A DNA stretch of 64,000 nucleotides from Bacilli bacterium. Its GTDB lineage: Bacteria > Bacillota_I > Bacilli_A > RF39 > UBA660. The stretch covers positions 67,232 through 131,231 of the forward strand of contig JAFRUZ010000002.1 of the NCBI GenBank assembly GCA_017438635.1, given 5' to 3'. Made by a program: the position numbers and the translations under genes. Of the stretch, positions 2,876-9,000 are shown piece by piece. Within the stretch, counting starts at the first letter, position 1; the number at the start of each line of letters is the position of its first letter. Below the pieces are notes generated by a model that saw only the letters and a list, made by a program, of their open reading frames with translations, was not told where the DNA came from and made no database searches.

Positions 2876-3850
2876 TTAATCGTAATTAACTGTAATAATT
2901 GAACTATTGTTTTCAAATGGATATGTATAGTTCTGTGTTGCATCCACTTTATAAAATCTAACCATCGTAGATGACAAAGCATCTATTTTAAAGGTTAAGC
3001 CATTTATATAATTAAAAGTATTAATTGTTGTCGTTGTCGTGGAATCAGCTTTCAAATAATTACTATTAGTCATATCTAGTAAAACAACATTAGGATTAAA
3101 AGCTAAATCCATTACTGTAGAAGCACATTTTGCACGTTTATCATCAGTGAAACTTAAATAAGTAGATATATCTATTCTATCTCCTACTGCATAAGTATCA
3201 AAGGCAGTTCTAACAGTGTAATAATCTAATGTATTTGTAATATTTAAATCAAAGTATGGTTGATTAGCCTTATCTACTATTTCGTAGAAAACACCCATTT
3301 TACCAACTTTTAAAACAAATCTACCACTTATCGTCTTTGTATATGGAGCAGTAGCTGATGCCGTTACTTCAAGCCATGCTTCATCTCCATCATGAAAAGT
3401 ACCTTGTGGTGTTATTGTAACAGTAAATGAATCAGTATGTCTAGAAGCAGGAATAGTCCCATAATTACCAGATATCTGACATGTTAAATTAGTAGAACAT
3501 CTATATGTAACAGTATATGTAATATCTGTTTTTGCATACTTTTCGTTATTATTATAACTGTTCATATTAAAAATTATAGGATAATCATCAGCAGCAGACC
3601 AGTTATCAATTTGATAACGTGCAATAGGATTATCTAACTTATCACTATTAAAATAGAAATTTTTACTAAGTAAGTAAAAATCCCTAATTTCAACATACAT
3701 ATATCTACCAGCAGTACCACTTATCAAAAAAAGTGGCAATAAAATCAATAAAATAATAAAACCTTTATATCTTGAACTTTTATATATTTTATAAATTTTA
3801 TTAATACTGTTTATTGCCTTCTTTTTCACTAATAAATACTTTTTTTTCAT
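2876..3850 (-). CDS. exported/N-terminally anchored beta-rich protein, putative minor fibre component of the SipW cluster
   Basis: 324 aa. Basic N-region then hydrophobic GFIILLILLPLFLISGTAGRY. The remainder is Thr/Asn/Tyr-rich with alternating beta-like pattern (DITYTVTYRCS, FTVTITPQG). Located in the cluster with the SipW peptidase. Confidence 0.5.
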   Translation of the reverse strand: MKKKYLLVKKKAINSINKIYKIYKSSRYKGFIILLILLPLFLISGTAGRYMYVEIRDFYLLSKNFYFNSDKLDNPIARYQIDNWSAADDYPIIFNMNSYNNNEKYAKTDITYTVTYRCSTNLTCQISGNYGTIPASRHTDSFTVTITPQGTFHDGDEAWLEVTASATAPYTKTISGRFVLKVGKMGVFYEIVDKANQPYFDLNITNTLDYYTVRTAFDTYAVGDRIDISTYLSFTDDKRAKCASTVMDLAFNPNVVLLDMTNSNYLKADSTTTTTINTFNYINGLTFKIDALSSTMVRFYKVDATQNYTYPFENNSSIITVNYD

Positions 3851-3854
3851 AAAA

Positions 3855-4370
3855 CTAGTTTTTCTTATCTTCTTTTTTTAATTCAACAACAATCTTTCTG
3901 AATAAATATGCAAATATTCCTAATGTAGGAAGAAGAATGATTAATAAATAACCAACTCTAGATTCAAGAACTTGCAAAACTCCTCCAATTTTTGAATATG
4001 TTTTAGCACCTTCAGTAGTTCCAAGTACATTTCTTCTAGCTACTGAACGAAGATTATTATCTAGATATAATTGAGATCCATCTTCACTTATTTCAACAAC
4101 AGATCCCTTGTTTACTGTAACATTTGCAGTATAGATATCATAATAAATAATTTCATCTCCTGCTTTTACATTTTCAAGAGTATTTTTGTTTGTTACAAGT
4201 AAATCTCCTTTCTTATAACCATAATCTTGCATATGTTCGTCAACTAAAACAAACGATTTGCTGCCAAATTCTGCAACTTCATAATCATTATAAGCAAGTA
4301 AATTAATAGTTACAAGAATTGCAACTAAAGCAAATATTCCAACCAAAACTCGAACAACTATTTTCTTCAT
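3855..4370 (-). CDS. SipW-like signal-peptidase homolog lacking the catalytic residues (pseudo-peptidase)
   Basis: 171 aa with TM helices at both ends, as in SipW. The position of the SGSMxP box reads VDEHMQD. No HR(V) His box. Its paralog at 8266..9000 shares GG(V/I)L(Q/A)VLESR(V/W)G(Y/F)LL. Confidence 0.5.
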   Translation of the reverse strand: MKKIVVRVLVGIFALVAILVTINLLAYNDYEVAEFGSKSFVLVDEHMQDYGYKKGDLLVTNKNTLENVKAGDEIIYYDIYTANVTVNKGSVVEISEDGSQLYLDNNLRSVARRNVLGTTEGAKTYSKIGGVLQVLESRVGYLLIILLPTLGIFAYLFRKIVVELKKEDKKN

Positions 4371-4432
4371 ATTATCACCTATTATAAATTATATCATAGT
4401 TTTTTTTCAAATACTATATTTTTATCTAAAAA

Positions 4433-6391: not shown

Positions 6392-7645
6392 CTACCCCTG
6401 CTTTGTATTTTTATTATTTGTAATAATGTACTCTGAAACACTGCTAGTATATCCAGATATAGGTTCTTCTTCAACAGTATATTTTGCTAGTTCACCTTTA
6501 TCGTATTTATACAGATTTATAAACGTATATTTCCAATCATTTTCTTTTGAAACTTTTTTACTTTCAACAAGTTCACCATTTTTAATCAGCTTAACAACAA
6601 CTTCTTTTGGTCTTGAATTTACTTCATCATTGTCATTCCATATTACTTTTCCAGATACATTAATCTTTTTAAAATTATGAGTATTAGTTATAGTAAACCC
6701 AGAAACATTCTTTTTATAACCTGGAACCATAACCTCATCTACAGAGTATTTTATTACATGTGAAGAATCATTTTCATAATTATCTTCGTACTTACATAAA
6801 CCTTTAAAAGTATAACTCCAATTGTCATTTTCAGTTATTTCTTTAGACTCTACAACAATATCTCCATTCATAACTTTTACTGTTATTGATTTTGGTCTAA
6901 TACCATCCTGATTATCATTGTCAGCCCATTCTTTTTTAACATGAATATCAACAGTTTCTCTAGATAAAGCATCCTCAACAGTTTCTGTAACTTCTTTAAC
7001 TTGAGTAACCGGTTCACTATCAGTTTTTTCTTCTATTTTTTTATTCTTAGAAGGAAACATTAAATCATGAACTTTTTCAAACCAACTCTTAGACTTATTA
7101 TCAAGTTCTTCTTGTTTTCTCTTTTTAAATAATCCTCTTTTATCCGCAGCCTTTTTATCTTCATACGATAGACCTAATCCAAATAATAACATAGTAAAGA
7201 ATATAGCAATCAATACTACCGGTGATAACATTATTTTTTTCCATACGCCAAATTTAGGAAAAACTGTTATAACTTTCCCAATAACACAATCTCTAGGAAT
7301 AGTCTTATCTTCAAATTTATTAAAATCACCTTTAGCAATAATTTTAGTGTCTTGAACATCTACTACTCTATGAGTTACAAAACTTCCATCTATGTTATAT
7401 GTTATTATGTCATCTTTTTTTACATCTTTAGTCTCTTTTACTACAACCATATCTTTAACATTAATTGTAGGAGACATACTTCCACTTTCTACTTCAAACA
7501 AACTATATCCAAAATAACTAGCATAGTTTTTATCTAATACAGCAACTTGGAAAAGTCCATATAACGCAAAAAAGATAGAAACAATTACAAGTCCTGTTAA
7601 TAAACTTAAAAAATACTTAGTAACTATTTCAATCTTTTTTTTCAT
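6392..7645 (-). CDS. sipW: SipW-type (ER/archaeal-type) signal peptidase I fused to two CnaB-type domains
   Basis: 417 aa. N-terminal TM. Ser box FEVESGSMSPT, His box FVTHRVV, KGDFNKFED box. Second TM LSPVVLIAIFFTMLLFGLGL. Then two repeats of the form K(K/V)xW(A/N)DNDxxxxRPKxxxVK...NDW(S/K)YTFxxLxKY...YxVxEExxxGY, typical of CnaB. Confidence 0.75.
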   Translation of the reverse strand: MKKKIEIVTKYFLSLLTGLVIVSIFFALYGLFQVAVLDKNYASYFGYSLFEVESGSMSPTINVKDMVVVKETKDVKKDDIITYNIDGSFVTHRVVDVQDTKIIAKGDFNKFEDKTIPRDCVIGKVITVFPKFGVWKKIMLSPVVLIAIFFTMLLFGLGLSYEDKKAADKRGLFKKRKQEELDNKSKSWFEKVHDLMFPSKNKKIEEKTDSEPVTQVKEVTETVEDALSRETVDIHVKKEWADNDNQDGIRPKSITVKVMNGDIVVESKEITENDNWSYTFKGLCKYEDNYENDSSHVIKYSVDEVMVPGYKKNVSGFTITNTHNFKKINVSGKVIWNDNDEVNSRPKEVVVKLIKNGELVESKKVSKENDWKYTFINLYKYDKGELAKYTVEEEPISGYTSSVSEYIITNNKNTKQG

Positions 7646-7657
7646 TGTAATATCACG

Positions 7658-8266
7658 CTACTCTCCTTCATATTGGACAACTTGTTCTCCATTATACTGA
7701 GTTAATAATACATTTACAGGAATTTCTATAGTTGCATTCTCAGTTTTCCCCAATTCATAATCTTTATCATTATTAGCCTCAACATTAGGCCAACTAATTG
7801 TAGTTCTTATAGTATCCACTTGATCCAGTTCAATTTCATCAAGTGTAATAATCCCAGTATATGTACTAGGACCTGTTTGAATTATTCTTTTACCTGAAGT
7901 TTCTCTAACGCTAGAAACCGCAATAGAAGTCTCTGAATCTTCAAGATTGCTATAATCAAAAGTTATATCATACCTCACTGATACTTCTGTACCACTAGGA
8001 TCTATGGCAATATCAAAATACCCACCTAAACCTGGGGCTAATCTTCCAGTTTTAACATTTACATCTGAATCATAATTGATAGTATCTATATCAAAATCCA
8101 CTGCTTCAGATGTTACATCAACTTCATTAACTAAAATTGTCCATTGCCCAAGGCCATTTTGCACTACCCTTGTAGTATCAGATTGCAAAAGAGAAAAAGC
8201 ATATAATATACCAACGATTAAAACTATTCCAAGAACTAAACTAGATATATAAAATATTCTTTTCAT
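7658..8266 (-). CDS. exported TasA/camelysin-like small protein
   Basis: 202 aa. Signal/TM ISSLVLGIVLIVGILYAFSLL. RLAPGLGGYFDIAIDPSGTEVSVRYDITF resembles the PG-x-F-x-hydrophobic strand motif of the TasA/CalY family. Confidence 0.45.
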   Translation of the reverse strand: MKRIFYISSLVLGIVLIVGILYAFSLLQSDTTRVVQNGLGQWTILVNEVDVTSEAVDFDIDTINYDSDVNVKTGRLAPGLGGYFDIAIDPSGTEVSVRYDITFDYSNLEDSETSIAVSSVRETSGKRIIQTGPSTYTGIITLDEIELDQVDTIRTTISWPNVEANNDKDYELGKTENATIEIPVNVLLTQYNGEQVVQYEGE

Positions 8267-9000
8267 TATTCAGCTGATTCGTTTTCGTTTGACTTTTCTT
8301 CTTGTTCTTCAACTTTATTCTCTTGAATTTCTTCTTCGTTAGTTTGAACAACTTCTTCTTTTTCTACTTCTTTTTCTTTTTCTTCCACCACAACTGGTTT
8401 TTCTTCTTCTTCACTCTTTTCTACAGGTTTATCATCATCACCAGCAGGCTCTTCTTTATTAACTTCTTTTTCTTTTCCTTCGTCTTCAGGTCTTACAATT
8501 TCTTTAACAACAGCATAAATTTCGTAAAGGAAAATTACTGATATTGGAAATACTATCATTAACAAGAATCCCCATCTAGATTCTAAAACAGCTAATATAC
8601 CTCCAACATTGTTTATAACTTTTGCAGTATCTGCTTTACCAATTACATAATCACTAGAAAGTTCATAATTTCCAGTAATAGTATATGTAGTTTGAGTATC
8701 AGTTACTTTTTGAGTTTTTAAAACTTTACTGAAACTAACAGCAATTTGATTTTTATATGTATTATAGAAAAATATTTCATCATTAACTTTTATATCATCG
8801 TTTTTATTCTTTTTAACGATAATCAAAGTACCCTTTTTATAACTAGGTTCAAATTCATCATTTTTAACAATTATAAAAGACTTATCTCCAAACACAGAAA
8901 TCTTATAATCATTATAAGTTAACAAACATGCAGTTAAAAAAACTGCCACTAATAAATACACTGTTGCAAATATACCAATAATTATTCTTTTTATTTTCAT
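8266..9000 (-). CDS. SipW-like pseudo-peptidase with a long acidic C-terminal tail
   Basis: 244 aa with TM helices at both ends. The Ser-box position reads VKNDEFEPS and the His-box position reads VSFSKV. About 75 aa of E/K/V-rich tail follow TM2. First gene after the predicted promoter. Confidence 0.5.
   Translation of the reverse strand: MKIKRIIIGIFATVYLLVAVFLTACLLTYNDYKISVFGDKSFIIVKNDEFEPSYKKGTLIIVKKNKNDDIKVNDEIFFYNTYKNQIAVSFSKVLKTQKVTDTQTTYTITGNYELSSDYVIGKADTAKVINNVGGILAVLESRWGFLLMIVFPISVIFLYEIYAVVKEIVRPEDEGKEKEVNKEEPAGDDDKPVEKSEEEEKPVVVEEKEKEVEKEEVVQTNEEEIQENKVEEQEEKSNENESAE

Follow-up and report, generated by a model that had tools for sequence, protein, structure and literature searches.

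In contig JAFRUZ010000002.1 of a Bacilli bacterium (GTDB lineage Bacteria; Bacillota_I; Bacilli_A; RF39; UBA660; NCBI GenBank assembly GCA_017438635.1), we analysed computationally a stretch of 64,000 nucleotides (nt; positions 67,232 to 131,231 of the forward strand), hereafter the window, whose first 9000 nt hold a cluster of exported proteins, SipW-like signal peptidases and cytoplasmic partners that we read as a candidate surface-structure system. A preliminary description had placed seven genes between positions 2876 and 9000, and the list of open reading frames (ORFs) agrees with it, with all seven on the minus strand.

Gene content and operon structure

All features of the cluster lie on the minus strand and are given here in the direction of transcription. 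The cluster begins with a 244-residue SipW homologue, termed pseudo-SipW 1 (8266..9000), whose stop overlaps the start of the gene for p202, an exported protein of 202 residues and putative beta-sandwich minor subunit (7658..8266; most proteins are denoted by p and their length in residues). These are followed by a predicted active SipW-type signal peptidase I of 417 residues (6392..7645), by a second exported candidate minor subunit, p209 (209 residues, 5759..6388), and by the candidate major subunit, p385 (385 residues, 4482..5639). Directly after the p385 stop lies a terminator-like hairpin with a 9-base-pair (bp) stem and then a T run (4442..4464), followed by a promoter-like site, TTGAAA-18-TATAAT (4381..4410), which is a consensus match only (11 of 12 positions). 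Further downstream come pseudo-SipW 2 (p171, 171 residues, 3855..4370), a further exported candidate subunit, p324 (324 residues, 2876..3850), the cytoplasmic protein p322 (322 residues, 1892..2860), which always comes after p324, the membrane-anchored coiled-coil and McrB-like AAA+ protein p513 (338..1879), and the first 108 codons of a partner with a DUF2357 (McrC-N-like) domain (2..325), which runs off the window edge. The translation of this last gene start matches a 372-residue protein (DUF2357, E 4e-11) of a 99%-identical strain, whose locus we call L004. A search of window positions 1-9400 for known RNAs and riboswitches gave none at E ≤ 1.

The hairpin and the promoter match split the genes after p385, and the gaps in p171-p324-p322-p513 are short (4, 15 and 12 nt), so the supposed seven-gene locus resolves into a predicted core operon of five genes (pseudo-SipW 1, p202, active SipW, p209 and p385) and the first two genes of a predicted second operon, which comprises pseudo-SipW 2, p324, p322, the McrB-like AAA+ protein, the DUF2357 protein and more genes past the window edge. 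With a gene that is the most GC-rich of the locus and has its own terminator, p385 fits an abundant major subunit. Judging by the same gene order in related genomes, the ORFs are real genes and not chance frames.

Recurrence of the cluster in related genomes

Homologues of p385 number more than 2000, come from uncultured gut Bacilli and bear neither a Pfam domain nor an informative name. In a representative library the family spans 3004 clusters at 50% identity (E ≤ 1e-3), and the best 150 of these 3004 are all close, full-length relatives, with no bridge to a named family among them. Among species-representative genomes, a scan identified 275 carriers, every one an uncultured metagenome-assembled genome and one of them closed at 1.26 Mb; their labels are Bacilli bacterium, Clostridium sp. 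CAG:609/914/628/567, Erysipelotrichaceae, Tenericutes or similar, some of these being obviously mis-binned. Among the genomes scanned, the cluster is found only in uncultured small-genome gut or rumen Bacilli.

For comparison, 83 related loci (79 from the genome scan plus L001-L004) were annotated with the window proteins, and 81 were left after duplicate removal. The order pseudo-SipW, p202, SipW, p209, p385 is present in 42 of these 81, and nine more with SipW and p209 fused bring the count to 51. About 30 loci extend into pseudo-SipW 2, p324, p322, p513, DUF2357, a third SipW-like gene, a 215-residue exported protein and more p202- or p385-like genes, and the extended loci often include a protein of more than 2500 residues with repeats. 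In many genomes the cluster has a giant protein of this size linked to it, with repeats of the YGGGN type (L004:20477-21149, L001:1-5826); that of L004 bears at its N-terminus an S-Y-A|L-F cleavage motif (the bar marks the predicted cut), which makes the giant protein a further possible substrate of SipW, perhaps an adhesin.

Two other proteins accompany the cluster elsewhere. A conserved cytoplasmic protein of about 505 residues usually lies between the giant protein and the core operon, and p322 is unrelated to it (hhalign 0.1%). Outside the window, a protein of about 235-255 residues (L004:18680-19441; type-2 loci such as L036, L068 and L075), always directly upstream of a p385-like gene, has an N-terminal transmembrane (TM) segment, no cleavage motif and a p385-like C-terminal motif, and might, uncleaved, anchor the polymer in the membrane.

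One active SipW and two conserved pseudo-peptidases

The 244-, 417- and 171-residue proteins have two hydrophobic segments each by hydropathy, one N- and one C-terminal, as in SipW. The 417-residue protein scores 70.4 bits against TIGR02228, above the cut-off of 51.85, and keeps the SGSM, THR and GDFN motifs intact in its peptidase part (residues 1-160, about 7166-7645), whereas the 244-residue protein (NF046067, E 2.5e-5) and the 171-residue protein (TIGR02228, E 1.4e-5, model positions 7-157 of 158) both match along their entire length but, at 20.5 and 25 bits, fall short of the cut-off. Catalytic columns were read from an alignment of 168 SipW-like proteins of the related loci, at the motifs SGSM, THR and GDxN. 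The central SipW has Ser, His and Asp in 61 of 61 cases; in the copies at the first position (244-residue type) and after p385 (171-residue type), all three columns are substituted in 79 of 79, by varied residues. A third SipW-like class, encoded downstream of DUF2357, keeps Ser and His and has Ile, Val or Leu in the Asp column (28 members). The dead family aligns with the active SipW family at hhalign 97.4% (E 1e-11).

On these motifs the 417-residue protein is predicted to be a true archaeal-type SipW signal peptidase I, and the 244- and 171-residue proteins are predicted to be conserved pseudo-peptidases, SipW homologues that are not enzymes. The earlier count of three SipW-like genes is right as a statement of homology; as a statement of function it is misleading, because two of them are catalytically dead in every genome and only the 417-residue protein passes the cut-off with its catalytic residues. 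The dead copies have stayed intact as ORFs even where, between lineages, subunit identity is down to 35-55%, which argues for conserved pseudo-enzymes and not for decaying genes. Each lies immediately upstream of one subunit gene, that of p202 or p324. Dead SipW paralogues are not described in the literature that we searched. Pseudo-SipW 1 has an acidic C-terminal tail; its roughly 70 low-complexity, Glu/Lys-rich residues (8266-8480, minus strand), predicted to be cytoplasmic, are largely absent from the examined homologues, most of which are shorter.

In nine loci (L010, L013, L014, L016, L017, L018, L019, L022 and L040) SipW and p209 form a single ORF of 364-380 residues, for example L014:6711-7808, with SipW and its intact catalytic motifs at residues 1-155 and p209 at about residues 180-372. 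Such a fusion links enzyme and substrate and fixes the predicted topology, in which the SipW C-terminus would be cytoplasmic and the p209 anchor would then cross outward. The SipW of the window carries two C-terminal Cna_B domains (about 6416-6658 and 6680-6946, minus strand; Pfam E 3e-42), placed after TM2 and a Lys/Arg-rich stretch. Because no hydrophobic segment comes after TM2, these domains are predicted to be cytoplasmic, which would to our knowledge be unprecedented for Cna_B. Longer SipW variants (253-421 residues) in nine other examined loci have unrelated, charged or helix-like tails after TM2. The window also encodes a housekeeping P-type signal peptidase I (49804-50328, minus strand; Peptidase_S26, E 1e-51) beside ribosomal protein L19, and the SipW-type genes would thus be additional and dedicated.

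Exported proteins with SipW-type cleavage sites

Exactly one hydrophobic segment, at the N-terminus, is found in each of p202, p209, p385 and p324. Thr makes up 10-14% of all four, and Asn and Tyr each about 8% of p209 and p324, so that hydropathy and composition bear out the previous characterization of four exported proteins with an N-terminal anchor or signal and a Thr/Asn/Tyr-rich body. A SipW-cognate-like motif had also been pointed out in one protein. This motif, GTATFAWFTANKT, is present in p385, which scores 19.2 bits against TIGR04088 (SipW-cognate signal) at a cut-off of 19, and 24 of 35 members of its family match the same model. By column counts the pattern is wider: at the end of the hydrophobic segment, [TS]-[YF]-[AGS]|x-[FY] is shared by five exported families, namely those of the four window proteins and that of the 215-residue protein. 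The family motifs are T-Y/F-A|W-F-T-A/S-N in p385 (A66, W67, F68 and N71 being invariant in 83 of 83 sequences), T/S-F-A|W-F-I-Y in the 215-residue family, S/T-Y/F-G/A|L-F-E-S in p202, T-Y/F-S|R/K-F/Y in p209 and T/S-Y/F-G|R-Y-V/I-Y in p324. In the window, the sites read T-F-A|W-F-T-A-N in p385 (nt 5436-5450), T-L-S|R-Y in p209 and T-A-G|R-Y-M-Y in p324, which also has three invariant Cys. The TasA site is T-W-A|A-F, and G-T-W-A-A-F-N-D is invariant or nearly so in an alignment (A8) of 34 genuine TasA/CalY proteins, all with PF12389. The aromatic P2' residue is described as what makes TasA need SipW, the general signal peptidase cutting TasA poorly (PMC10269814). By this pattern, the exported families are predicted to carry SipW-type cleavage sites like that of TasA.

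p385 is made up of a Q/E-rich cytoplasmic N-terminal stretch, a TM segment (46-64), a jelly-roll-like body and a G/S-rich tail. The low-complexity Gln/Glu-rich N-terminus (45 residues; 5505-5639, minus strand) is largely absent from the examined homologues, most of which are shorter. The most conserved parts of p385 are the mature N-terminus, with alternating V74, V76, I79, V81 and V83, and the C-terminal strands, YMW(I/V)EGQDVDCEN. The families of p202, p209, the N-terminal domain of p324 and the 215-residue protein are distant paralogues (hhalign 81-94%; p209-p202 92%, p209-p324 81%), and p385 is related to the other exported families via the signal region only. No C-terminal LPXTG-type signal was found in the nine cluster proteins; by Pfam, Cna_B occurs on the peptidase only and on no subunit, and p385 has no wall-binding or other domain.

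Subunit folds and the relation to TasA

The TasA/camelysin model PF12389 matches no window protein at E ≤ 0.1 and none of 34 members of the p202 family. Among 29 members of the 215-residue family it matches one (E 0.018, 15.3 bits vs a cut-off of 22.5), the neighbour in L004, a match that we dismissed since it was not reproduced in the 28 other members. Alignment to A8 with hhalign gives 0.2% for p385, 5.1% for p202, 5.4% for the 215-residue family, 6.3% for p209 and 0.4% for p324, and family profiles of p385, p202, p324 and the 215-residue protein found nothing among PDB sequences. AlphaFold2 monomer models are beta-rich, in line with the beta-rich bodies first proposed, with a predicted local distance difference test (pLDDT) score of 78.6 for p385 and 72 for p202; in p385, residues 61-80 form a low-confidence N-terminal strand (43-59) against a confident core. 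A self-complemented monomer model of the archaeal pilin AbpA has the same low-confidence N-terminal strand behaviour (PMC9245690). Foldseek searches of the PDB with both models gave nothing at E ≤ 1e-3. The best match of p385, to the Sulfolobus thread 7pnb, is non-significant (E 0.1, probability 0.28) and stands among carbohydrate-binding modules and viral jelly-rolls, the TasA fibre 8aur not being in the top 50; the matches of p202 are to sandwiches of various kinds, FimG among them, and 8aur ranks 42nd (E 0.063, template-modelling score 0.31). As modelled, p385 and p202 are generic beta-sandwich or jelly-roll folds.

Because there is no PF12389 match and the hhalign values stay at 0.2-6%, membership of TasA/CalY, which had been proposed at the outset, is unsupported by sequence and profile, and we reject TasA/camelysin homology on the present evidence from the Pfam hidden Markov model, PDB profiles, hhalign against A8 and Foldseek with the two models. 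It seems to us unlikely that the subunits are highly diverged true TasA/CalY/BsaA members and the locus an expanded operon of the tapA-sipW-tasA type. Such an origin would suit the TasA-like signal motif with a dedicated SipW, the insignificant hhalign alignments, which are still co-linear with TasA landmarks (Y/KPG...N.G in the 215-residue family and p209; QY.GE vs QW.G in p202), the template-modelling score of 8aur, highest for the query among the listed p202 matches, and the reported character of the family, which is very divergent and has several paralogues beside signal peptidases (PMC11580942). Set against this are the hhalign values themselves, the absence of PF12389 but for the single 215-residue protein, the PDB sequence searches, which found nothing, and the Foldseek searches, with nothing at E ≤ 1e-3.

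A different reading keeps the processing by SipW and drops the filament: the products would be secreted or surface proteins (coat, adhesins or matrix), monomeric or bound to the giant adhesin. The models, as generic carbohydrate-binding-module or capsid-like sandwiches, are compatible with it, as is the linkage to the cluster of a giant repeat protein that bears a signal motif of the same kind, and the polymer is inferred, not demonstrated. We consider it improbable all the same. Once cleaved, p385 would be left without an anchor in membrane or wall (no LPXTG-type signal and no Pfam wall-binding domain), which favours a fibre, and conservation of p385 peaks in the strand at its mature N-terminus and in the C-terminal strands, which favours strand exchange. 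Several small paralogous subunits with one major subunit are, moreover, the usual layout of a pilus.

A McrB-like AAA+ protein and its DUF2357 partner

Within the second operon, p322 has no TM segment and no Pfam or PDB match; a by-eye look at its C-terminus as a degenerate EAL domain was dropped, being unsupported by Pfam, NCBIfam and PDB profiles. p513 has a TM segment at residues 56-74 by hydropathy, a coiled coil and an AAA+ core. It matches the McrB model NF008457 (E 9e-6), and its core (residues 192-372) finds McrB only in the PDB (6hz4, 6ut6 and 7vsr, E about 5e-5). Conservation within the cluster is highest in p513, whose median identity is 75%, as against 54% in p385 and 32-49% in the rest. 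In order to remove ascertainment bias, we searched metagenomes with p513 as the query and kept loci of at least 12 kb. SipW-like and exported-subunit genes are present in all 44 loci found in this way, even where the rest is rearranged, and a DUF2357 gene comes directly after p513 in 41 of the 44. A crude motif test found no invariant or near-invariant Asp or Glu after about residue 125 in the DUF2357 family, which has no PDB relative either, so a PD-(D/E)XK nuclease is not evident in the partner.

p513 also matches the PADLOC candidate defence family PDC-M26A (E 4.7e-33). Together with McrB structures as its sole PDB matches and with a partner domain typical of McrC-like proteins, this would suit an independent McrBC-like defence module that sits in the island by chance, next to a fibre locus in need of no nucleoside triphosphatase (NTPase). 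We find this doubtful, since every p513-found locus places p513 among SipW-like and subunit genes, short gaps join it to the genes from p171 onward, no other cluster protein is as conserved, its N-terminus is a TM segment and coiled coil and not a DNA reader, and its partner lacks a conserved acidic residue at the expected PD-(D/E)XK site. Gene context thus suggests, with moderate confidence because all data come from one lineage, that the p513 and DUF2357 pair belongs to the system and is not an inserted defence module. A McrBC-type pair may have been recruited here to a non-defence role; literature searches found no description of McrB or DUF2357 beside SipW.

Genomic setting and the neighbouring prophage

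A prophage of about 35 kb lies next to the cluster at 9112-44048, integrated at the 3' end of tRNA-Pro(tgg). An 18-bp repeat, AATGGTCGGGAAGACAGG, equal to the 3' end of this tRNA gene, occurs at 9112-9129 and 44031-44048, with no copies expected by chance. The prophage carries an integrase (42734-43957, plus strand), a lysis cassette (9632-10932) with an endolysin of GH25 and PG_binding domains (9632-10528) and a holin-like gene (10528-10932), and tail-fibre-like genes, and nothing close to it was found in the INPHARED phage collection. At its extreme end, on the opposite strand to its neighbours, is an HNH endonuclease gene (9275-9583, plus strand; phrog_7370, E 3e-17), which also gives a weak match to the IscB HNH region.

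That the cluster is cargo of this prophage (lysogenic conversion) is very improbable. The locus does abut the lysis cassette; however, the attachment (att) repeats leave it outside the prophage, and it has no DNA or protein match in phage collections and no informative PHROG match. In L004, from the 99%-identical strain, the cluster adjoins tRNA-Arg, tRNA-Pro and sporulation genes (Germane, GerE-like and SpoIIIAH), with an empty tRNA-Pro site and no prophage, and on the repeats and this empty site we rejected the cargo explanation.

A candidate SipW-dependent surface structure

We read the cluster, with slightly better than even confidence, as a chromosomal, lineage-specific, SipW-dependent surface-structure system, and the structure that it builds is probably a surface fibre. 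In the mechanism that we propose, SipW would cut the signal anchors and release the beta-sandwich subunits, after which p385 would probably polymerise by donating its mature N-terminal strand, WFTANKTVSVNDIQVNV, to the next subunit, while the paralogues p202, p209 and p324 would act as minor, initiator or anchor subunits. More speculatively, both dead SipW copies (each in translational coupling with one subunit gene) might hold anchors uncut and so serve as chaperone, retention factor or platform, while on the cytoplasmic side a ring of the membrane-anchored McrB-like protein, together with the nuclease-less DUF2357 protein, might contribute GTP-driven work or control. The strongest form of this idea is a new envelope machine, in which surface filaments, and possibly a giant adhesin, would be assembled on a membrane platform of one active and several dead signal-peptidase paralogues, with assembly driven or gated from the cytoplasm by a membrane-anchored, nuclease-less McrBC-like GTPase; this we put forward only tentatively.

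Several observations weigh against a SipW-dependent fibre. Neither sequence nor profile nor fold comparison ties the subunits to a known fibre subunit, and all carriers are uncultured. The p202 family does not match TIGR04088, and the p202 site in the window, A-F-S|L-L-Q-S, is without an aromatic P2'. The PADLOC match of the p513 AAA+ core is to a candidate defence family, and the related loci are all of one lineage, so that part of the conserved synteny could reflect inheritance and not function.

SipW-dependent fibres (TasA, CalY and BsaA) are the main model for Gram-positive biofilm scaffolds, and self-assembly outside the cell is assumed for them. The present cluster keeps the SipW logic with subunit families that are unannotated throughout their 3004 clusters, and adds features without precedent in SipW fibre systems, namely pseudo-signal-peptidases paired with subunit genes, enzyme-substrate fusions and a membrane-anchored McrB-type AAA+ protein. 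Its parts are new families, and its accessory set has no described counterpart in the literature searched, which, with the uninformative names of the p385 homologues, agrees with the preliminary view of a system uncharacterised in this lineage. We know of no account of the surface biology of these uncultured small-genome Bacilli, of which at least 275 species-level genomes from gut and rumen carry the cluster, and it thus offers a handle on attachment and aggregation in the gut. It also supplies testable cases for the roles of pseudo-peptidases and for a non-defence role of a McrBC-like pair. Should the NTPase-driven machine prove true, it would represent an NTPase-coupled route to donor-strand-type fibres, as opposed to the passive, chaperone-free assembly of TasA, BsaA and archaeal Abp.

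Comparison with known systems

Unlike the subunits of sortase-assembled Gram-positive pili, those of the cluster bear no C-terminal LPXTG sorting signal. The closer parallel is with tapA-sipW-tasA of B. subtilis and sipW-tasA-calY of B. cereus, which likewise have a dedicated archaeal-type SipW in the operon; also shared are a cleavage site of the form T-aromatic-small|x-aromatic and one major beta-rich subunit with accessory exported proteins. In contrast to these operons, the cluster has no detectable subunit homology to TasA, CalY or TapA, contains four to seven subunit paralogues where B. subtilis has two subunits, and includes two conserved dead SipW copies and a third Ser/His-only copy, the McrB-like AAA+/DUF2357 pair, additional cytoplasmic proteins and, linked to it, a giant adhesin-like protein. 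C. perfringens sipW-bsaA-bsaB-bsaC resembles it in combining SipW with several paralogous subunits in one operon, and polymerisation of BsaA has been proposed to proceed via an N-terminal donor strand (PMC11580942). An Asn in the mature N-terminal strand is common to BsaA and p385 (the invariant N71), whereas profile hidden Markov models tie BsaA, and not the cluster subunits, to TasA, and the vWA protein of the bsa locus is missing from the cluster.

Jelly-roll-like subunits, here known from models, are a further likeness to the archaeal AbpA bundling pili (PMC9245690) and the Sulfolobus threads (7pnb), and a GTPase gene was noted in the abp operon of P. calidifontis (PMC9245690). The archaeal abp and thread loci differ in having no dedicated peptidase, and the similarity to 7pnb is, as given above, non-significant.

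An inactive signal-peptidase paralogue is known from Staphylococcus aureus, in which SpsA is encoded beside the active SpsB; SpsA is of the P-type (Ser/Lys) family, single and not paired with fibre subunits. The dead copies of the cluster are, unlike SpsA, of the ER/archaeal type, number two per locus and are each coupled to a subunit gene. With McrBC, finally, the cluster shares an AAA+ core that aligns to McrB and a partner with DUF2357 as in McrC-like proteins; it departs from McrBC in that a TM segment and coiled coil replace the N-terminal DNA-binding domain, the partner is without a conserved nuclease motif, and the pair is always embedded in an exported-protein cluster.

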